From Bacteroidales bacterium (GTDB lineage: Bacteria; Bacteroidota; Bacteroidia; Bacteroidales; Muribaculaceae), in the NCBI GenBank assembly GCA_021205635.1, contig JAJPXC010000095.1:15076-79075 (forward strand): a DNA stretch of 64,000 nt, in the 5' to 3' direction. The notes below the pieces were generated by a model. The model was not told where the DNA came from. It did not search any database and worked only from the letters and a program-made list of their open reading frames with translations. Of the stretch, positions 17,119 through 63,425 are shown in pieces. The translations under genes and the position numbers were made by a program. Each line of letters starts with the position of its first letter. Position 1 is the stretch's first letter.

Positions 17119-18060
17119 ATGTTTAAGAGCAAGAAGACGATGGCCAATTGGGCCATGGGCGTGTCGAAGTTTTTCTCGGGTTTGAACGAGAATGCTTTGC
17201 GCTACCTCTTGCCGGGGTGGATGAACGCCATGTCGGGTGTCGTGTTCCGTATGGGATTCGGTGCCGTCGCCTTTTGGATAATCTCGCTGTTTCGCGGCAA
17301 ACGCAACACCCCCATCACCACCAAGCAAAAACTCATCCTGCTTCTCCTGGGCGCCGTGCCGATGTACGGCTACATGATTTTTCTGCTTTATGGCCTTAGC
17401 TACACCACCCCTATCGCGTCGTCGATCTTCATCTCGCTGGAGTCGGTGGTGGTGTTCATCCTGTGCGTAATCTTTTACCACGAGCATGTGACGGCCAAGA
17501 AGCTGCTGGGCATCGCCTTGGGCTTGGGTGGCGCGTTGCTAATCATCTGCACGCAGAAACAGAGCGACGTGGCCTCCGATCCCCTGCTGGGCGACCTGAT
17601 GTGCGCCGGTTGCTGCCTTTGCTACTCCACCTATCTGGTGCTGTCGGCACGCGTGGTGAAGAAGATCGACAACATCACCGTGTCGAAATGGCAGTTCACC
17701 GGCGGCGCTATTTCGGCCGTGGCGGTGGTCGTGTGCGCCCACAATTGGCACGCGCCGGTGCTGGAGCAGGGAATCTTCTCCGCTCCTATGCTGGTGCTCG
17801 CGTTTGTGTTGATTTTCCCCTCGTGTATCAGTTACATGCTGGTTGACACGGGTTTGCGCTACCTGTCGACGACGGTTGTGGCACTTTACGGCTACCTGAT
17901 CCTCATCGTGGCCACGATCATGAGTTACGTCCTGGGTCAGGACCACTTCGACTGGTACCAGATCGTGGCTATCGCGCTGATCATCGCCTCGGTCTACTTC
18001 GTGGAGGTCGCCGAATCCCGCGACTCCGCCAACACCCCGGTAGCCAAGAATAGCCACTGA
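17119..18060 (+). CDS. DMT-superfamily (EamA) transporter, paralog 1
   Basis: ATG ORF 313 aa; about 10 TM segments in two EamA halves; N-terminus aligns by eye with the paralog at 46195-47103 (RYL.P.W...FGA..FW.ISLF). Confidence 0.8.
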   Translation: MFKSKKTMANWAMGVSKFFSGLNENALRYLLPGWMNAMSGVVFRMGFGAVAFWIISLFRGKRNTPITTKQKLILLLLGAVPMYGYMIFLLYGLSYTTPIASSIFISLESVVVFILCVIFYHEHVTAKKLLGIALGLGGALLIICTQKQSDVASDPLLGDLMCAGCCLCYSTYLVLSARVVKKIDNITVSKWQFTGGAISAVAVVVCAHNWHAPVLEQGIFSAPMLVLAFVLIFPSCISYMLVDTGLRYLSTTVVALYGYLILIVATIMSYVLGQDHFDWYQIVAIALIIASVYFVEVAESRDSANTPVAKNSH

Positions 18061-40604: not shown

Positions 40605-41879
40605 ATGAAAGTAGACGTGCTTTTAGGCCTCCAATGGGGCGACGAGGGTAAAGGGAAGGTAGTCGATGTGCTCACCCCCCGTTACGACGCTGTAGCCCGC
40701 TTCCAAGGCGGACCCAACGCTGGCCACACTCTTGAGTTTGAGGGCAAAAAATATGTGCTCCGCTCAATCCCCTCGGGCATTTTCCAACATGGCCAAATCA
40801 ATATCATCGGCAACGGCGTCGTGCTCGACCCCGTGCTCTTCGCCGAGGAGGCACGCGCCCTCGAGGCAAGCGGTGTCGACCTCAAAAAGGTGCTCAAAAT
40901 ATCCCGCAAGGCCCACCTGATACTCCCTACCCACCGCCTGCTCGACGCCGCCAACGAGCGTGCCAAGGGAGGCGCAAAAATCGGCACCACCGGAAAGGGC
41001 ATCGGTCCCACATATACCGACAAGGTGAGCCGCAACGGCCTGCGCTTGGGCGACATCGACCTCGATTTCGACACCCGTTACGCCGCAGCTCGCGACCGTC
41101 ACCTGCGCCAATTGGAGCAGATGGGTGACGCGGCCGACATGGAGGCGTTGCGTCAAGCCGAGGTCAAGTTCATGGAGGCCATCGACTACATCCGCGGATA
41201 TGAAATCGTCGATTCCGAGTGGCTAATCAACGACCTCCTGACTCAGGGCAAGAGCGTGCTTTGCGAGGGCGCCCAGGGCACCATGCTCGACGTTGATTTC
41301 GGCTCCTACCCGTTCGTCACCTCCAGCAACACGGTCTGCGCCGGCGCCTGCTCAGGCCTTGGCGTGGCTCCCAACCGCATCGGGGACGTTTTCGGCATCT
41401 TCAAGGCTTACTGCACCCGCGTAGGCTCCGGCCCGTTCCCCACCGAGCTCCACGACGAGACCGGCAAGCGCATCCGCGACCTCGGCCACGAATACGGCGC
41501 CGTCACCGGTCGTGAGCGCCGTTGCGGATGGATCGACCTCGTCGCCCTGCGCTACGCAATCATGATCAACGGCGTCACCAAGCTCATCATGATGAAGAGC
41601 GACGTCCTCGACGACTTCGATACAATCAAGGCCTGCGTGGGCTACGAAATCGACGGCAAGGTCACCGACCGCTTCCCCTACTCTATCGACGACGAGGCCG
41701 CGATCAAGCCCGTCTACGAGGAACTCCCCGGCTGGAAGACCGACATGACCAAAATGCGATCCGAGCAGGAGTTCCCACAGGAGTTCAGCGATTATCTGGC
41801 GTTCCTCGAGTGCAAGCTCGGAGTGCCTATCGCAATCGTCTCCATCGGCCCCGACCGCGAGCAAACAATTCTGAGATAA
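40605..41879 (+). CDS. purA: Adenylosuccinate synthetase
   Basis: ATG at 40605; MKVDVLLGLQWGDEGKGKVVD, GTTGKGIGPTY, TGRERRCGWID. Confidence 0.97.
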   Translation: MKVDVLLGLQWGDEGKGKVVDVLTPRYDAVARFQGGPNAGHTLEFEGKKYVLRSIPSGIFQHGQINIIGNGVVLDPVLFAEEARALEASGVDLKKVLKISRKAHLILPTHRLLDAANERAKGGAKIGTTGKGIGPTYTDKVSRNGLRLGDIDLDFDTRYAAARDRHLRQLEQMGDAADMEALRQAEVKFMEAIDYIRGYEIVDSEWLINDLLTQGKSVLCEGAQGTMLDVDFGSYPFVTSSNTVCAGACSGLGVAPNRIGDVFGIFKAYCTRVGSGPFPTELHDETGKRIRDLGHEYGAVTGRERRCGWIDLVALRYAIMINGVTKLIMMKSDVLDDFDTIKACVGYEIDGKVTDRFPYSIDDEAAIKPVYEELPGWKTDMTKMRSEQEFPQEFSDYLAFLECKLGVPIAIVSIGPDREQTILR

Positions 41880-41884
41880 AGTTG

Positions 41885-41986
41885 TAAGTTAAAAGTTGAA
41901 AGTTAAAGGTTTAAGGTTAAATGATTAATAGATTAAAGCTTTAAAGAATAAGCCATTAACCATTAACCATTGACCATTAACCATTA
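41885..41986. repeat. Second copy of the AT-rich cassette plus a (CCATTRA)x5 array, ending at the DUF1015 start codon
   Basis: aagttaaaagttgaaagttaaaggtttaaggttaaatgattaatagattaaagctttaaagaataa, then ccattaa ccattaa ccattga ccattaa ccattaa. Confidence 0.85.
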
Positions 41987-42000
41987 AATAACCGATTACC

Positions 42001-43248
42001 ATGGCAAAAGTTAAACCTTTCCGCGGCGTGCGTCCGCCGCGCGAGATGGTCACCGAGGTGGCCTCCCGCCCTTATGACGTGCTCAATTCCGACGAAGCCC
42101 GAGCCGAGGCCGCCGGCAACCCCAAGAGCCTGTATCACATCATAAAGCCCGAAATCGACTTCCCCGTGGGCACCGACGAGCACGACCCCCGCGTCTACGA
42201 CAAAGCTGTGGAGAATTTCCACGCCTTCCAGGACAAGGGTTGGCTCGTACAGGACGAAAAGGAGCACTACTATATCTACGCCCAGACGATGGACGGGCGC
42301 ACCCAATACGGCATCGTGATCGCCGCCAACGTCGACGACTACATGGAGCAGCGCATCAAAAAGCACGAGCTCACCCGTCGTGACAAGGAGGAGGATCGAA
42401 TGAAGCACGTGCGCGTAAACGACGCCAACATCGAGCCGGTGTTCTTCGCCTTCCCCGACAACGCCGCCCTCGAGCAGATCATCCGTGACGTCACCCAGGG
42501 CGAGCCCGAATACGACTTCACCGCTCCCGACGGCTTCGGTCACCATTTCTGGGTGATCGACGACGACGCCACTATCCAAAAAATCACCGAGGAGTTCGCC
42601 AAAATTCCCTACCTGTATATCGCCGACGGTCATCACCGCACAGCCGCAGCCGCTCTCGTGGGCGCCGAGAAAGCCAAGGCCAACCCCAACCACCGAGGCG
42701 ACGAGGAGTACAACTATTTCCTGGCCGTTGCCTTCCCCGCCTCCCATCTTAAGATCATCGACTACAACCGCGTGGTAAAGGATCTCAACGGCTTGACCCC
42801 CACCCAGTTCCTCGACAAGATTAAGGAGCATTTCACCGTTGAGCCTAAAGGCACTGAGATCTATCACCCTCAGCACCTGCACAACTTCTCGCTCTACCTC
42901 GACGGGCAGTGGTACTCGCTCACAGCCAAGGAGGGAACCTACGACGACAACGACCCCATCGGCGTGCTCGACGTGACCATCTCCTCCGACCTTATCCTGC
43001 GCGACATCCTGGGTATCACCGACTTGCGCTCCGACAAACGTATCGACTTCGTGGGGGGCATCCGAGGTCTCGAGGAGCTGAAACGCCGCGTCGACTCAGG
43101 AGAAATGGCTATGGCCCTCGCGCTCTACCCCGTGTCGATGGACCAACTGATCAACATCGCCGACACCGGCAACATCATGCCCCCGAAGACCACTTGGTTT
43201 GAACCCAAGTTGCGCTCGGGCCTCGTTATCCACAAGCTTGAATCATAA
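42001..43248 (+). CDS. DUF1015-family protein
   Basis: ATG ORF 415 aa; MAKVKPFRGVRP N-terminus and IADGHHR motif as I recall for DUF1015; function unknown. Confidence 0.7.
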   Translation: MAKVKPFRGVRPPREMVTEVASRPYDVLNSDEARAEAAGNPKSLYHIIKPEIDFPVGTDEHDPRVYDKAVENFHAFQDKGWLVQDEKEHYYIYAQTMDGRTQYGIVIAANVDDYMEQRIKKHELTRRDKEEDRMKHVRVNDANIEPVFFAFPDNAALEQIIRDVTQGEPEYDFTAPDGFGHHFWVIDDDATIQKITEEFAKIPYLYIADGHHRTAAAALVGAEKAKANPNHRGDEEYNYFLAVAFPASHLKIIDYNRVVKDLNGLTPTQFLDKIKEHFTVEPKGTEIYHPQHLHNFSLYLDGQWYSLTAKEGTYDDNDPIGVLDVTISSDLILRDILGITDLRSDKRIDFVGGIRGLEELKRRVDSGEMAMALALYPVSMDQLINIADTGNIMPPKTTWFEPKLRSGLVIHKLES

Positions 43249-43252
43249 CGAC

Positions 43253-43933
43253 ATGACTTTCGGAATTATTGTAGCCATGAGCAAGGAGCTTCAGCTCCTG
43301 CTCGGGCTTCTTGACGAGCCTCGCGAGGTGACAATCAACGACGTGACGTTCCATCTTGGCGACCTGGCCGGACACCAGATAGTGGCCATGCAATCAGGCA
43401 TCGGCAAGGTTAACGCCGCAGTAGGCGCTCTTACCCTTATCGAGAATTTCCACCCCGCGCTGGTGATCAACACGGGCGTGGCTGGCGGCGCTGATGGTGG
43501 TGCTGACGTATTGGATGTAGTCGTGGGCGAGCGTGTCGCCTACCACGACACCTATTGCGGTCCCGGCACTCAATGGGGCGAGATCCAAGGGCAGCCCCGA
43601 TACTTCGAGGCTCCGGCCGACCTGCTGTCGCTCGAGTGCTTGCAACCTTCCGAGCACGTCAAGCGAGGCCTCATCGCCTCGGGCGACATCTTCGTCAGCA
43701 CCGTTATGGAGCTGGAGCGAATCAAGGAGATCCACCCCGACGTGATGGCCGTCGACATGGAAAGCGCAGCCATAGCCCACGTGTGCGCCCTGAAGAGCGT
43801 GCCGTTCCTGTCGGTGCGCGTAATCAGCGACACCCCGGGACATGCCGACAACATCTCCCAATACGAAAACTTCTGGGAGTTGGCTCCGCGCCACACGTTT
43901 GAGATCCTTAATACCCTTTTGCGCAGCATTTAA
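43253..43933 (+). CDS. mtnN: 5'-methylthioadenosine/S-adenosylhomocysteine nucleosidase
   Basis: ATG at 43253, 4 nt after the DUF1015 stop; GIIVAMSKE, GIGKVNAA, INTGVAGG, DMESAAIAHVC. Confidence 0.9.
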   Translation: MTFGIIVAMSKELQLLLGLLDEPREVTINDVTFHLGDLAGHQIVAMQSGIGKVNAAVGALTLIENFHPALVINTGVAGGADGGADVLDVVVGERVAYHDTYCGPGTQWGEIQGQPRYFEAPADLLSLECLQPSEHVKRGLIASGDIFVSTVMELERIKEIHPDVMAVDMESAAIAHVCALKSVPFLSVRVISDTPGHADNISQYENFWELAPRHTFEILNTLLRSI

Positions 43934-44421
43934 TGGAAAAAATCGCCAGTTTTCAGGTCAATCACCTGCTCTTAAAGCGCGGCGTGTACGTGTCGCGCCG
44001 CGATGTTACACCAGCCAACGAGGTGATCACAACCTTCGACATCCGCATGAAGGAACCTAACCGAGAGCCTGCCCTCTCGGGAGCCGCAATCCACACCATC
44101 GAGCACCTCGCCGCCACCTTCCTGCGCAATCACCCCACATGGCGTCACCGCATAATTTACTGGGGACCAATGGGTTGCCTTACTGGCAATTATCTCATCG
44201 TCTCAGGCGATTACAAAAGCGAGGACATCCTGCCGCTGATGCAGGAGACATTCCAATTCATCGCCGACTACGAGGGTGAAATCCCCGGAGCCACTCCCCA
44301 CGACTGCGGCAACTACACTTTCATGGACCTCCCCGCAGCCCGCGCCGAAGCCCGCCGCTACCTCACCGAAATCCTCCTTTCCCCTACCCCCGCCAACCTC
44401 CGATATCCCACCGAAGCATGA
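43933..44421 (+). CDS. luxS: S-ribosylhomocysteine lyase (AI-2 synthase)
   Basis: ATG overlaps the pfs stop (TAATG); 162 aa; metal-binding HTIEHL and GC.TG motifs. Confidence 0.93.
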   Translation: MEKIASFQVNHLLLKRGVYVSRRDVTPANEVITTFDIRMKEPNREPALSGAAIHTIEHLAATFLRNHPTWRHRIIYWGPMGCLTGNYLIVSGDYKSEDILPLMQETFQFIADYEGEIPGATPHDCGNYTFMDLPAARAEARRYLTEILLSPTPANLRYPTEA

Positions 44422-46094
44422 CCCCCTCGCCATCTTCCGCCCTTTCACGCAACCACTTGACAATCGGCCTATTCTTAGCGATAGTGACCGTATCGATGTG
44501 GGTATACAGCAAGGATAGGGTTCTATATGGCGATGAGGTATTCTATTGTTACAATCTTAGCAATCAGGATATTACTCCTTTCTCTACCGAGTTTCCCTAC
44601 CAAGGGATTCCTATCAACACGCTGGGAGACGTGGTAGAGTCGCTTACTTGGCATTACTTTTGCTGGAACGGCCGCATTGTGCCTCACTTCATCCAGCAAA
44701 CTTTCTCAGGAATTTTGCCGCTGGAAGCGTTTTATGTGCTAAATGCCCTGGTTTTCGGCCTCACGCTCTACCTGATGGCCTATATTGCCACCAACCGTCG
44801 ACCATGGAAACGTATATGGGTGTGGGTGACTATTATGGCCACTATGATGCTATATCCCAACTGGCCCCGAGTCTTCGCATCCAACAACTTGAGCGTTAAT
44901 TACTTATGGCCGCTTACAATGGGATGCATCATCTGGATATGGTGGGTAAAATTACGTGACGGGAAGATTAAATACCCTTGGTGGAAAGGGCTCCTGACGC
45001 TTATAGCAGCCTTCTTGATGGGCTGGACCCACGAGGCTATGGTGGTGCCAATGTGCGCCACAATCCTCCTTTGGTACGTTTGGCATAAGCGATTGCCTAA
45101 ACACGCCGAGGCTTGGCTTGTGTCAGGATTTGTGGCCGGAAGCTTGATAGAGATTTTCGCCCCGGGAAATTTAGGACGATTCGACGTTCACGCCAAGCAT
45201 CTCGACACCTTGGCCTCACCTTTTATCGTGGCGCTCCTTGGGACTTTTGTGGCTATTGCCTTCGTGGCGCTATATGCAATCTTTTGGAAACGACGGCCCG
45301 CTTTGGCCCAGCATTGGCTCAAGGAGCGGGCGTGGGGTGGGGTTTTATTGCTTTTCGCCTGGGCTTTCATTCTCGCGATCCACACGGGCACCCATTGCTT
45401 CGGTTATGCCAACACGGTGGCTCTCTTATTGGTAATCAACATGTTGATCCAGTGGCATCCATGGAAATCCGTTTCCGATGTGGCAACCCGCTGGTGGGCT
45501 GCGGCGCTTCTACTCCTAGGTGTACACTTCGGATGTACGGCCTACGATCAAAATCACACCGACACGCTAATTCACCAGGCACTGGATAGATACGTCAATG
45601 CTGAGGATGACCTGATGATTATCCCCTATGACCAATTCGGCCATTGGTGGACACGCCCATGGTTGCGACTACGTTATGAATACCAATGCCGCCACACCAT
45701 CCCGCTATTGTACGCCAACGGCCAGAAAACCCTCCAGATGGTCGACCAATCGATGTTTGACGCTATCGCCGACAGCGCCAATTTCTTCGTGCCCGAGAAT
45801 CGTCTCCCGGGCGACGGGCCCTATTACTGGCGCAAAGGGATGGAACAAATCGTGTGCCACCCCGACTCGATGGGGCGTCAAGCTGTGGTCATTAAGCTCC
45901 AGCGATTTGCTGTATTCGATCCCGACATACCCATGAAGGAGCGCCTTAGATGCATCCTGCAACCCCAGCAAGCCGACGATGAATTCTACGCCGTGCCCCA
46001 CCCCACCCCGAGCCCCATCGGTCCCATCCAATTCGCGACCCTACCTCCCGACCGCCGTCCCCTCCACGTCTACTACTTCCACGGCGAATACTAG
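44418..46094 (+). CDS. Polytopic membrane protein, function unknown (GT-C-like / DUF6056-like; weak call)
   Basis: ATG overlaps the luxS stop (ATGA); 558 aa; about 10-11 TM segments; acidic YGDEVFY in the first loop; ~170-aa soluble C-terminal domain; visibly lower GC than its neighbours. Confidence 0.4.
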   Translation: MTPSPSSALSRNHLTIGLFLAIVTVSMWVYSKDRVLYGDEVFYCYNLSNQDITPFSTEFPYQGIPINTLGDVVESLTWHYFCWNGRIVPHFIQQTFSGILPLEAFYVLNALVFGLTLYLMAYIATNRRPWKRIWVWVTIMATMMLYPNWPRVFASNNLSVNYLWPLTMGCIIWIWWVKLRDGKIKYPWWKGLLTLIAAFLMGWTHEAMVVPMCATILLWYVWHKRLPKHAEAWLVSGFVAGSLIEIFAPGNLGRFDVHAKHLDTLASPFIVALLGTFVAIAFVALYAIFWKRRPALAQHWLKERAWGGVLLLFAWAFILAIHTGTHCFGYANTVALLLVINMLIQWHPWKSVSDVATRWWAAALLLLGVHFGCTAYDQNHTDTLIHQALDRYVNAEDDLMIIPYDQFGHWWTRPWLRLRYEYQCRHTIPLLYANGQKTLQMVDQSMFDAIADSANFFVPENRLPGDGPYYWRKGMEQIVCHPDSMGRQAVVIKLQRFAVFDPDIPMKERLRCILQPQQADDEFYAVPHPTPSPIGPIQFATLPPDRRPLHVYYFHGEY

Positions 46095-46194
46095 CCCCTG
46101 GATAGTGTACCGTCCCCCCTACCCGCGGCCCCGAAGGGGTGGCAGAAAACTTTCCATATCCCCATTCGTTATAATGCTATAACGACGTTTCGAC

Positions 46195-47103
46195 ATGAAA
46201 AAATGGGGTAATCTTCTGAAAGGCAATGTGAACATGCTCTTGGCCAAGCTGACGTACGGCTTGGACTATAACTGTATACGCTATCTGCAGCCTCGGTGGG
46301 TCGATCCTCGCGGAATGACAGTCGTGAGACTCGTTTGGGGAGCGTTATCGTTTTGGGCGATATCCCTGTTTTACAAGCCTGCGCGTGAGGGATTCACAAC
46401 CGCCGCCAAGTGGAAACTGATGGGCTTGGGCGCAGGGGTGTTCTTCTTCTACATCTTCTGCTTGAATGAGGCGTTGACCTACACCAGCCCAATTCCCGTT
46501 ACGCTGATTATGAATATCGACCCTGTGTGGGTGTTCATCCTCTCCTTAATTTTCCTTGGAGAGAGAGGCACGAAGCTGAAATACATTGGATTGGCTATTG
46601 GCCTTATTGGAGGCGGACTATGTCTATTGGGCGAACATAGCCACGGGCATGCGTCGGATCCTCTCCTTGGCGATATCTTCGCATTTGTGGCGTCGATTCT
46701 GTTCAGCATCTACATCGTGTGGAGTCACAGGGCGCTGCGTAATGCCAACCCTCTGGGGACACTGAAATGGGTGTTCACCGGAGCCGCAGTGCCCGCATTG
46801 GTGATGGCTCTTATATGGGGCGTGAAGTTGCCGGTGTTACACGAGGGATTGTTCTCAACGCCGATGCTGGTGCTGATTTTCGTGTGTGTATGCTCGACCA
46901 CGCTGGGTTACATCTTCTTTTACGCCGCGGTGAAGTACCTCAAAGCCACAGTGGTGGCGGTTTACGGCTACCTCAATCTAATCATCACGGCCATCGCCAG
47001 TTACATCCTTGGTCAGGATCACTTCGAGTGGTGGCAGCTCATCAGCTTCCTTCTCATCGTCCTCTCCATCTACTTGATGGAGATAGCCGAACGAAAAACC
47101 TAA
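46195..47103 (+). CDS. DMT-superfamily (EamA) transporter, paralog 2
   Basis: ATG ORF 302 aa; about 10 TM segments; aligns by eye with 17119-18060. Confidence 0.8.
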   Translation: MKKWGNLLKGNVNMLLAKLTYGLDYNCIRYLQPRWVDPRGMTVVRLVWGALSFWAISLFYKPAREGFTTAAKWKLMGLGAGVFFFYIFCLNEALTYTSPIPVTLIMNIDPVWVFILSLIFLGERGTKLKYIGLAIGLIGGGLCLLGEHSHGHASDPLLGDIFAFVASILFSIYIVWSHRALRNANPLGTLKWVFTGAAVPALVMALIWGVKLPVLHEGLFSTPMLVLIFVCVCSTTLGYIFFYAAVKYLKATVVAVYGYLNLIITAIASYILGQDHFEWWQLISFLLIVLSIYLMEIAERKT

Positions 47104-62279: not shown

Positions 62280-63425
62280 ATGCCTAATAGCTGGAGCCAA
62301 CCATATACGTTCGACCGCGTTGTCCGCCTGGTCATCACCATCATCATAATCCTCGGGGCGATATGGCTTATCAACGTGTTGAAAAGCGTGTTGCTGCCAT
62401 TCTGCGTAGCCTGCCTCGTGGCCTATATCTTCGAGCCGTTCGTGCAGTACAACCGGAGGATGCTGCGCCTAAAGGGTCGCATCGTGGCGATATTTGTCAC
62501 CCTGTTTGAGGCCACCACAGTGTTCGGCATCTTGTGTTGGTTCTTTATCCCCTCGATTGTGGAGGAGACCCAGCAGATGGCTGTATTGCTGCGGCGCTAC
62601 GCCGAGACCGAGATGGACGTGCCCTTCCTCCCCGAGGGAATGCACCACTTCCTCAAGCGCATCATCGACTTCAACTATCTGAGCGACGTGTTGACCACCC
62701 AGGACATCGAGCGTGTGCTCGAGCGCGCCGTTGCCGTGCTGTCGTCGGGCGTGGATATCATCATGGGAGTGTTCTCATGGTTCATCGTCCTGCTCTACGT
62801 GGTGTTTATAATGCTTGACTATGACCGACTTATGGAAGGCTTCCGCATGCTCGTGCCGCCCAAGTACCGCAAGTTGACGTTCAAGATCGGCCGCGACATC
62901 AAAACGTCCATGAACCACTATTTCCGTGGCCAAGCGCTTGTGGCGTTCATCGTGGGGATACTGTTCTCCATCGGCTTCCTCATCGTGGGATTGCCTCTTG
63001 CCGTTGTCCTCGGCCTGTTCATCGGCTTGCTCAACATGGTGCCCTATCTGCAGTTGATCTCTATTATCCCAACCACGTTACTTTGCCTGGTCTACTCTGT
63101 GGACCACAACGCGGGATTCTGGACGATATGGTGGGAATGCATCGCCGTTTACTGCATTGTGCAATTGATCCAGGATCTGTTCCTTACCCCCAAGATCATG
63201 GGCAAAGCCATGGGACTGAATCCGGCCATCATCCTATTGTCGCTATCGGTGTGGGGCACACTCCTTGGCCTTATCGGACTTATTATCGCCCTGCCGTTAA
63301 CCACCTTGCTGATAGCATATTACGACCAATACGTGCTTCATCGACCCCGCGACGGCTTCACACCCGAGGAACGCCACCGCCAGCAAGAAGACCTCCGCGA
63401 AATCACCCGCTTCCCCGACGACTAA
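62280..63425 (+). CDS. AI-2E family (PerM/YdiK/TqsA-like, UPF0118) transporter
   Basis: ATG ORF 381 aa; about 8 TM segments; LLPFCVACLVAYIFEPFV N-terminal region and overall layout typical of the family. Confidence 0.75.
   Translation: MPNSWSQPYTFDRVVRLVITIIIILGAIWLINVLKSVLLPFCVACLVAYIFEPFVQYNRRMLRLKGRIVAIFVTLFEATTVFGILCWFFIPSIVEETQQMAVLLRRYAETEMDVPFLPEGMHHFLKRIIDFNYLSDVLTTQDIERVLERAVAVLSSGVDIIMGVFSWFIVLLYVVFIMLDYDRLMEGFRMLVPPKYRKLTFKIGRDIKTSMNHYFRGQALVAFIVGILFSIGFLIVGLPLAVVLGLFIGLLNMVPYLQLISIIPTTLLCLVYSVDHNAGFWTIWWECIAVYCIVQLIQDLFLTPKIMGKAMGLNPAIILLSLSVWGTLLGLIGLIIALPLTTLLIAYYDQYVLHRPRDGFTPEERHRQQEDLREITRFPDD

Follow-up and report, generated by a model that had tools for sequence, protein, structure and literature searches.

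We analysed a window of 64,000 nucleotides (nt), the whole stretch of Bacteroidales DNA considered here (contig JAJPXC010000095.1, positions 15,076 to 79,075 of the forward strand, family Muribaculaceae), in which a gene for a 558-amino-acid (aa) membrane protein overlaps the stop codon of luxS at the 3' end of a tight block of four genes. The block and its surroundings, numbered by window position, contain the following features.

41878-42000, no strand: AT-rich intergenic repeat region upstream of DUF1015, with 7-nt tandem repeats
42001-43248, + strand: DUF1015 protein, 415 aa, the first gene of the tight block (Pfam PF06245, E=1e-116)
43253-43933, + strand: pfs/mtnN, encoding 5'-methylthioadenosine/S-adenosylhomocysteine nucleosidase, 226 aa (NCBIfam NF004079, 193 bits against a cutoff of 169)
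43933-44421, + strand: luxS, encoding S-ribosylhomocysteine lyase, 162 aa (NCBIfam NF002604, 201 bits against a cutoff of 158)
44418-46094, + strand: the membrane gene, 558 aa, family DUF6056/GT_STM0557_N, a GtrC-type protein of the glycosyltransferase C (GT-C) fold (Pfam PF19528, E=3.5e-32)
44418-44558, + strand: 5' segment of the membrane gene, approximately codons 1-47 (first transmembrane helix and start of the first loop), diverging like the flanks
44532-44537, + strand: codons of D39-E40, the acidic motif of the first periplasmic loop and candidate catalytic residue
44559-46094, + strand: divergent allele body, or cassette, of the membrane gene, with silent sites near saturation against both other known alleles
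45600-46094, + strand: soluble C-terminal domain, residues ~395-558, predicted periplasmic (AlphaFold secondary structure)
46095-46194, no strand: 100-nt gap after the membrane gene, with a GC-rich hairpin (sequence and fold)
46195-47103, + strand: EamA/DMT transporter, 302 aa (Pfam EamA, E=8e-34)

Direct reading of the junctions, together with the list of open reading frames (ORFs), bore out the gene packing, the overlaps and the 100-nt distance to EamA that a first-pass annotation of this DNA had described. DUF1015 and pfs are 4 nt apart (TAA-cgac-ATG), pfs and luxS overlap by 1 nt (TAATG), luxS and the 558-aa gene overlap by 4 nt (ATGA), and EamA starts 100 nt past the 558-aa gene; between 42001 and 46094, gaps between genes never exceed 4 nt. 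The identities given earlier for pfs, luxS, DUF1015 and EamA were upheld by Pfam and NCBIfam matches. The ATG start of pfs agrees with the public assembly call, and alignment showed that the catalytic HxxEH motif and Cys are intact in the window LuxS. Because tight stop/start packing is ordinary inside bacterial operons, the overlaps alone are unremarkable and within expectation.

The 558-aa protein matched Pfam PF19528, which is DUF6056 and which the contig annotation labels GT_STM0557_N, with 112.2 bits against a cutoff of 27 (E=3.5e-32, residues 12-377), and the allele of a sister species scored 110 bits against the same model. Pfam and NCBIfam scans of the 558-aa protein returned nothing besides DUF6056, and its soluble C-terminal domain had no Pfam match. 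GtrC of phage ε34 (551 aa) belongs to the same family (E=3.7e-67). The gene for this protein, gene 20, holds the gtrC position of a gtrABC operon, and its product is 30-40% identical to STM0557 (PMC2629481); the gp20 'GtrC' of record EU570103 is annotated as similar to NP_459550. STM0557-STM0559 constitute the gtr(LT2_I) operon of Salmonella Typhimurium, which encodes a GtrC of family III and adds glucose in alpha-1,4 linkage to O-antigen galactose (PMC3688519). Alignment by hhalign of a 69-sequence profile built around the window protein with ε34 GtrC gave a probability of 98.4% (E=6e-15), with the motifs DE/DD, HY..(N/S)GR, NYLW, GW(T/S)HE and (A/S)PGN..R in register and D39 of the window protein placed on the 'DD' of ε34 GtrC. 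This residue lies within the 'YGDEVFY' loop; like G85, R86, Y162 and E206, D39 shows no variation among 69 family members and occurs in each of the three alleles known at the locus.

The extent of the family was revealed by an exhaustive HMMER search, which recovered 1,323 cluster representatives at E<=1e-3, most of them ~540-560 aa long and many aligned over their full length, whereas word-indexed homolog searches, including one with the profile, gave just 5-6 proteins. Beyond its own clade, the best match of the window protein in the exhaustive search was only ~27% identical. Sequence searches of the PDB with the 558-aa protein and with the 69-sequence profile gave no match, and tblastn produced one weak unannotated match in a phage collection and none in a plasmid collection.

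The AlphaFold model of the 558-aa protein (predicted local distance difference test score, pLDDT, 87.2; predicted template modelling score, pTM, 0.89) contains ~11 transmembrane helices followed by an alpha/beta domain from approximately residue 395. The earlier description of about 10-11 transmembrane segments, an acidic YGDEVFY loop and a ~170-aa soluble C-terminal domain agrees with this model, in which the domain spans residues ~395-558, and with the invariance of D39. When the model was compared with PDB structures using Foldseek, the high-probability matches were all GT-C enzymes, namely ALG12 (1.00), two STT3 proteins (0.98 and 0.94) and Pmt4 (0.91), and the next PDB matches outside GT-C had a probability of at most 0.15. 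The best viral Foldseek match was an uncharacterised Oenococcus phage membrane protein (E=4e-7). The first-pass annotation had guessed at a GT-C enzyme and pointed to DUF6056, and both suggestions were substantiated by the PF19528 match, the Foldseek matches to GT-C structures and the alignment with ε34 GtrC. Assignment to GT-C is supported by the polytopic architecture with a soluble domain, the acidic first-loop residue and the similarity of fold.

The first loop after transmembrane helix 1 is net negative (eight D/E against three K/R), and the loops placed inside are rich in K/R; such charges are compatible with an N-in/C-out topology, in which all invariant residues would face the periplasm. 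The C-terminal domain is predicted to be periplasmic and is possibly the acceptor-binding part, and residues 442-490 within it form the block best conserved between alleles. Neither Pfam nor NCBIfam detected any similarity to AI-2 (autoinducer-2) transporter families, and transporter folds reached a Foldseek probability of at most 0.15.

The genomic context of the family is surface-glycan synthesis or modification, because relatives adjoin GtrB homologs or lie in polysaccharide loci. Two distant DUF6056 members directly adjoin genes for 322-aa family 2 glycosyltransferases (GT2) that are 36-38% identical over their full length to ε34 GtrB. Outside the clade, the nearest full-length relative belongs to a polysaccharide locus that also encodes glycosyltransferases of families GT1, GT2 and GT4, epimerases, a flippase of the Wzx type and an initiating transferase of the WecA type, and another relative lies between Acyl_transf_3 and hexapeptide-repeat (Hexapep) genes. 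A DUF6056 protein assayed in Enterococcus showed weak to negligible antiphage defence. We also observed an orphan DUF6056 gene (L140:1516-3192, Logan SRR32209729; 558 aa, 26% identical to the window protein) that starts 11 nt after a gene for a PyrK-like dihydroorotate dehydrogenase electron-transfer subunit; its position beside a pyrimidine-biosynthesis gene means that DUF6056 genes attached to housekeeping genes occur elsewhere too.

A single narrow clade of uncultured Bacteroidales has the 558-aa gene downstream of luxS; it comprises the window species, a sister species (L001 and L002) and a third lineage (L108). The sister species, whose flanks share ~87-88% nucleotide identity with the window, shares both the gene order, DUF1015-pfs-luxS-membrane gene, and the ATGA overlap. 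The third lineage is represented by a 1.7-kb contig (L108:1-1730, Logan SRR15219682) that opens with the tail of luxS and enters the membrane gene through a TAATG junction. The start of the membrane gene thus overlaps the luxS stop in three lineages, with the junctions ATGA, ATGA and TAATG. Elsewhere, the membrane gene and DUF1015 were absent near luxS in 80 of 80 other Bacteroidales loci from species-representative genomes, whose LuxS proteins are at most 74% identical to that of the window, and were likewise absent at 30 of 30 metagenome pfs loci; a metagenome scan with pfs yielded no additional clade members. The pfs-luxS pair was found in most of the other Bacteroidales loci examined, and the genes downstream of luxS in those loci vary widely. 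Conservation of the luxS overlap in related genomes, a point raised in the first-pass annotation, therefore has two sides: the overlap is kept in the sister species and the third lineage, whereas the gene itself is absent from the 110 other loci. No close relative with an 'empty site' was found, so the direction of the event (insertion versus loss) rests on parsimony.

Within the window species, nine further contigs showed 99.5-100% nucleotide identity over the covered region of the 558-aa gene. Eight of ten independent same-species assemblies stop at or near a C-rich tract, GTGCCCCACCCCACCCCGAGCCCC, at the 3' end of the gene (window 45996-46016), and three of these continue into unrelated poly-C or poly-G. 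The breaks are probably a coverage or assembly artefact, with 99.5-100% identity up to the break; less probably, the tract marks a variable junction. Among the closest luxS loci outside the clade, six that are Muribaculaceae-like (L004, L006, L012, L021, L023 and L027) have a different recurrent downstream neighbour, a conserved protein of ~220 aa with the N-terminal sequence 'MKDIKAIKGKYYI..LIEEGEHEHQDFK', encoded on the same strand 3-30 nt after luxS.

No membrane partner of this kind coupled to luxS had been known to the first-pass annotation, a statement that now requires qualification. A 2026 preprint reports yfhO beside mtnN-luxS or sahH in Bacteroides, Parabacteroides and Phocaeicola, describes YfhO as a predicted oligosaccharyltransferase (OTase) of Bacteroidota protein O-glycosylation whose gene is conserved and probably essential, and finds that yfhO expression changed upon swapping mtnN-luxS for sahH (bioRxiv 10.64898/2026.07.27.740950). 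In approximately 22 Bacteroidaceae/Prevotella loci (L016, L018, L019, L022, L025, L030, L031, L032, L034, L035, L050, L052, L055, L062, L071, L074 and others), we found an ORF of ~830-980 aa with ~13 transmembrane helices that is divergent from pfs and lies ~100 nt upstream of it. All three of these ORFs that were scanned with Pfam matched YfhO close to the gathering score, which reproduces the yfhO adjacency of the preprint. A polytopic glycosyltransferase beside luxS is thus already precedented, and the window gene, being of a different family and geometry, is a separate case. The possibility that the 558-aa protein is itself a diverged YfhO was rejected, with no PF09586 match at E<0.1 and an hhalign probability of 1% against the YfhO of L025.

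Comparison of the window with the sister species revealed a marked difference between the membrane gene and its flanks. Amino acid identity was 98% for PBP1a (ratio of nonsynonymous to synonymous substitution rates, dN/dS, 0.017), 97% for PurA (0.039), 99% for DUF1015 (0.013), 98% for pfs (0.016) and 97% for the C-terminal half of EamA, and fell to 53% for the membrane protein (dN/dS 0.17, with dS saturated). The third allele (L108) is 51% identical to the window allele and 65% to the L001 allele, so that the three alleles are mutually 51-65% identical compared with 97-99% for most flanking proteins. At four-fold degenerate sites, counted within identical amino acids and with a saturation level of ~0.75 expected from composition, 331 of 956 (0.35) differ between window and sister species across the flanks and codons 1-50 of the membrane gene, compared with 85 of 129 (0.66) in codons 51-558 (Fisher p = 2e-11); the divergence of codons 1-50 taken separately was 0.36, on just 14 sites. 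The nucleotide alignment with L001 continues through luxS and ends at 44558, and all three alleles are pairwise near silent-site saturation (0.63-0.71). Because silent sites are near saturation in the body of the membrane gene while the flanks are not, this body is much older than the genomes carrying it, with a 5' boundary near codon 50. Either allele replacement by recombination or a long-maintained polymorphism explains the age gap.

Composition sets the gene apart as well. Its GC content of 0.527 is lower than that of pfs (0.589) and luxS (0.577), as the first-pass annotation had noticed, and its GC at third codon positions (GC3), 0.633, is the lowest of the sizeable window genes (z approximately -2.8). 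Overall GC was set aside as evidence of horizontal origin, the conserved native EamA being equally GC-poor, and GC3 and silent sites were used instead. The reading frame is intact in the window and the sister species (552-558 aa) and the family motifs are kept in all three alleles, which argues that the gene is not simply decaying. The L108 allele carries an in-frame stop at approximately codon 364, where L001 has Cys, and is called as two ORFs; the allele may be a true pseudogene, or the stop may stem from a sequencing error, the contig having low coverage.

As a separate observation, the amino acid sequence of LuxS evolves unusually fast in this clade. Window and sister-species LuxS (L001:9519-10004) share 84% amino acid identity, with a dN/dS of 0.17 and a dS like that of the neighbours, and the substitutions are scattered along the protein; the order-wide trend is the opposite, luxS being more conserved than pfs.

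Collectively, we favour a reading to which we assign a probability of about two in three (0.66). In it, the 558-aa protein is a GT-C glycosyltransferase of the GtrC type that uses a polyprenyl-phosphate-sugar donor to modify a surface glycan; one clade acquired its gene by capture at the 3' end of a housekeeping operon and has kept it as divergent alleles. Capture of a horizontally inserted gene was one of two possibilities offered by the first-pass annotation, and it is the one that fits the absence from 110 other pfs/luxS loci, the atypical GC3 and the near-saturated silent sites unlike those of the flanks. Under this model, catalysis would involve D39, the invariant residue of the first outer loop, and the sugar would be taken from a lipid-linked polyprenyl-phosphate-sugar, for which the GtrB homologs beside distant members provide the only indirect support. 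The acceptor would be O-antigen, capsule or the glycan of a glycoprotein, perhaps selected with the help of the periplasmic C-terminal domain. The presence at one site of three or more alleles of ancient divergence is the pattern that would be expected of an exchanged or polymorphic surface-antigen gene. The overlap with the luxS stop most likely just supplies transcription and translation from the housekeeping operon, and the membrane protein would not be a partner in S-adenosylhomocysteine (SAH) recycling or AI-2 production.

Several observations weigh against this reading. Searching the 64-kb window with two GtrB-type proteins by tblastn found none (best E 0.8), and there was no GT2 or GtrA among the 25 strongest Pfam families of the 35 window proteins, so genes supplying the donor, if any, lie outside the window. 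There is also no prophage or mobile-element context, with no integrase or phage gene beside the 558-aa gene. The GT-C matches in Foldseek are modest (TM-score 0.36-0.45, with 0.40/0.45 for ALG12; best E=9e-3), and homology to STM0557 was tested only via ε34 GtrC and the Pfam label, STM0557 itself not having been aligned. Some family members in polysaccharide loci could be polymerases rather than side-chain transferases, and the silent-site divergence may partly reflect weaker codon bias instead of age. Finally, the overlap kept in three lineages and the independent yfhO report leave some room for a functional link to luxS.

The best placed of the alternatives, which we nevertheless regard as unlikely, is that the protein belongs to the same superfamily and performs another reaction, acting as a glycan polymerase, ligase or OTase (Wzy-, WaaL- or OTase-like) on a lipid-linked oligosaccharide. 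The locus of the nearest outside relative, with its Wzx-type flippase, has no other Pfam-labelled polymerase candidate, no GtrA or GtrB was detected near the gene in the window, an oligosaccharyltransferase, STT3, is among the PDB matches, and in Bacteroidaceae luxS has the gene for YfhO, a predicted OTase, as its neighbour. By contrast, the only members linked to experiment are GtrC proteins of gtrABC operons, two distant members directly adjoin GtrB homologs, the 558-aa protein has no Wzy_C or O-antigen-ligase Pfam match, and no relation to YfhO is detectable (hhalign 1%).

We consider it distinctly improbable that the gene is a decaying passenger, a relic under relaxed selection whose low interspecies identity reflects drift towards a pseudogene. 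The in-frame stop of the L108 allele at the L001 Cys codon, the low GC3 and a dN/dS of 0.17, ten-fold above that of the neighbours, would be consistent with decay. That ratio is nevertheless well below 1, the frame of 552-558 aa is intact in two species, nucleotide conservation is 99.5-100% across the same-species contigs carrying the gene, and none of the three alleles has lost a family-invariant residue or motif; drift, moreover, would not saturate silent sites solely from codon 50 onwards.

Marginally less probable still is a true coupling to the activated methyl cycle or AI-2, in which the protein would be made in fixed proportion to LuxS and would use, export or sense a product of Pfs or LuxS, or in which glycan modification would be tuned to flux. 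This covers the other possibility of the first-pass annotation, the one it named first: that the protein is linked, stoichiometrically or metabolically, to the activated methyl cycle or to production of 4,5-dihydroxy-2,3-pentanedione (DPD). Such a link is not supported, since the arrangement is confined to one clade and relatives lie in polysaccharide loci or beside GtrB. In favour of coupling are the stop/start overlap with luxS, which persists in three lineages although the junction sequences differ, the lack of any internal gap or recognisable promoter from DUF1015 to the end of the membrane gene, and the unrelated GT-C-like yfhO adjoining mtnN-luxS or sahH in other Bacteroidales, with its expression shifted when mtnN-luxS was swapped for sahH. 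Against it, the gene is absent from 110 other pfs/luxS loci, the protein is of a glycosyltransferase family with other members in polysaccharide or gtr contexts and has no similarity to transporters or AI-2 proteins, its extreme allele divergence is typical of surface-antigen genes and not of metabolic partners, and yfhO of Bacteroidaceae also adjoins sahH, which makes no DPD. To a more speculative form we give equally little credence: that two unrelated GT-C-like genes (yfhO and this DUF6056 gene) beside SAH-recycling genes are no coincidence, envelope glycosylation being co-expressed with or tuned to methyl-cycle flux, for example through S-adenosylmethionine-dependent glycan modifications, and the hypervariable cassette being a glycan-type switch tied to LuxS output.

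Returning to the locus as a whole, DUF1015, pfs, luxS and the 558-aa gene probably form one operon and would be co-transcribed. The region at 41878-42000 is its likely promoter region because, apart from the PurA-DUF1015 spacer of 121 nt, no sizeable gap precedes the four genes. GC falls to ~0.48 in this region, which contains approximately six copies of AAAGTTA (41878-41921) and five copies of CCATTAA (41953-41987); the repeats are retained in the sister species (L001), where the spacer measures 386 nt. The two repeat types are partly reverse-complementary (GGTTAA / TTAACC). At the other end, the gap at 46095-46194 likely marks the end of the operon and contains a hairpin with the core GCCCC-GAA-GGGG, and a generic scan found no canonical T-tract terminator in it. 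Sigma-70 promoter and terminator scans of the locus stayed at background level, these scans being generic and uncalibrated for Bacteroidota.

The genes flanking the membrane gene are of the housekeeping kind: PBP1a, Fur, PurA, DUF1015, pfs, luxS, EamA, an amylase and methylmalonyl-CoA mutase. The role of DUF1015 beside pfs had been left unexplained in the first-pass annotation. A preprint proposes that members of the family, whose genes usually lie beside serA/serC, are serine kinases (SerBK; bioRxiv 10.1101/2024.10.14.618325), which offers a possible function for the protein, and the position beside pfs is specific to this clade.

EamA is a neighbour and not a conserved partner of the glycosyltransferase, since the sister species retains no more of it than an inverted C-terminal half. 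The remnant (L001:11660-12165, L002:3396-3876) covers the protein from 'LLGDIF...' onwards, has stop codons upstream and starts 24 nt past the glycosyltransferase stop; the L001 and L002 assemblies both end ~60 nt beyond it, and the sequence there has no relation to the window, which suggests either a rearrangement or a junction with a repeat or mobile element. An invertible segment around EamA was considered, prompted by this inversion and by the many contigs that break nearby, and was not adopted, with no convincing inverted repeats found and the breaks in the window species resembling assembly artefacts. The window contains a second EamA-family gene (17119-18060, 313 aa), a paralog of that at 46195-47103 with ~69-72% nucleotide identity over ~145 nt. 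It also contains a match to the AI-2E transporter family (PF01594, E=1e-51), in an ORF probably at 62280-63425 and ~16 kb from luxS; the family is widespread and we claim no link.

These results give the membrane gene a concrete assignment as a GtrC-type GT-C glycosyltransferase with a candidate catalytic Asp, at the probability stated above. What appeared to be a partnership between LuxS and a membrane protein is better described as a clade-specific capture than as an element of AI-2 biology, which cautions against over-reading luxS neighbourhoods. In these uncultured Bacteroidales of gut type, the locus would represent a natural cassette of surface-glycan diversity, with at least three ancient alleles that belong to a housekeeping operon and not to a prophage or a polysaccharide locus. 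Should these alleles produce different glycans, the gene could serve as a strain or serotype marker and could be relevant to phage and antibody recognition.

Among known systems, the closest is GtrC of ε34 and STM0557 (Salmonella GtrC family III), with which the window protein shares Pfam PF19528, a similar length (551 versus 558 aa) and the motifs DE/DD, HY..(N/S)GR, NYLW, G.(T/S).E and PGN..R, although the confident part of the alignment with ε34 GtrC is confined to the N-terminal ~230 residues. As in Salmonella, where GtrC families have very low identity to one another while gtrA and gtrB are conserved (PMC3688519), the alleles are highly variable beside conserved neighbours. Unlike these systems, the window gene has no adjacent gtrA or gtrB and no prophage context, its host belongs to the Bacteroidales and is not an enterobacterium, and the gene is joined to a housekeeping operon by a stop/start overlap. 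With ALG12, STT3/PglB-type OTases and protein O-mannosyltransferases (PMTs), the protein has in common a polytopic N-terminal domain whose first extracytoplasmic loop carries an acidic residue, and a soluble domain beyond the membrane; it differs from solved GT-C enzymes in its low similarity (TM-score 0.36-0.45, 11-15% identity) and in a C-terminal domain without a recognised fold. The DUF6056 genes in capsule- or O-antigen-like loci (P0007 in L141, P0004 in L085) encode proteins with the same architecture that match over their full length (515-556 aa, 26-30% identity), but those genes are ringed by sugar-nucleotide and glycosyltransferase genes, of which the window gene has none within 64 kb.

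YfhO (PF09586) resembles the window protein in being a large polytopic GT-C-like membrane protein encoded right beside SAH-recycling genes in Bacteroidales. It belongs to another family and is longer (~830 versus 558 aa), its gene is divergent and upstream of pfs whereas the window gene is co-directional and downstream of luxS, and yfhO is reported to be conserved and probably essential, whereas the window gene is clade-restricted and hypervariable. The window gene therefore represents a second, independent case of a GT-C-like gene beside SAH-recycling genes in Bacteroidales.

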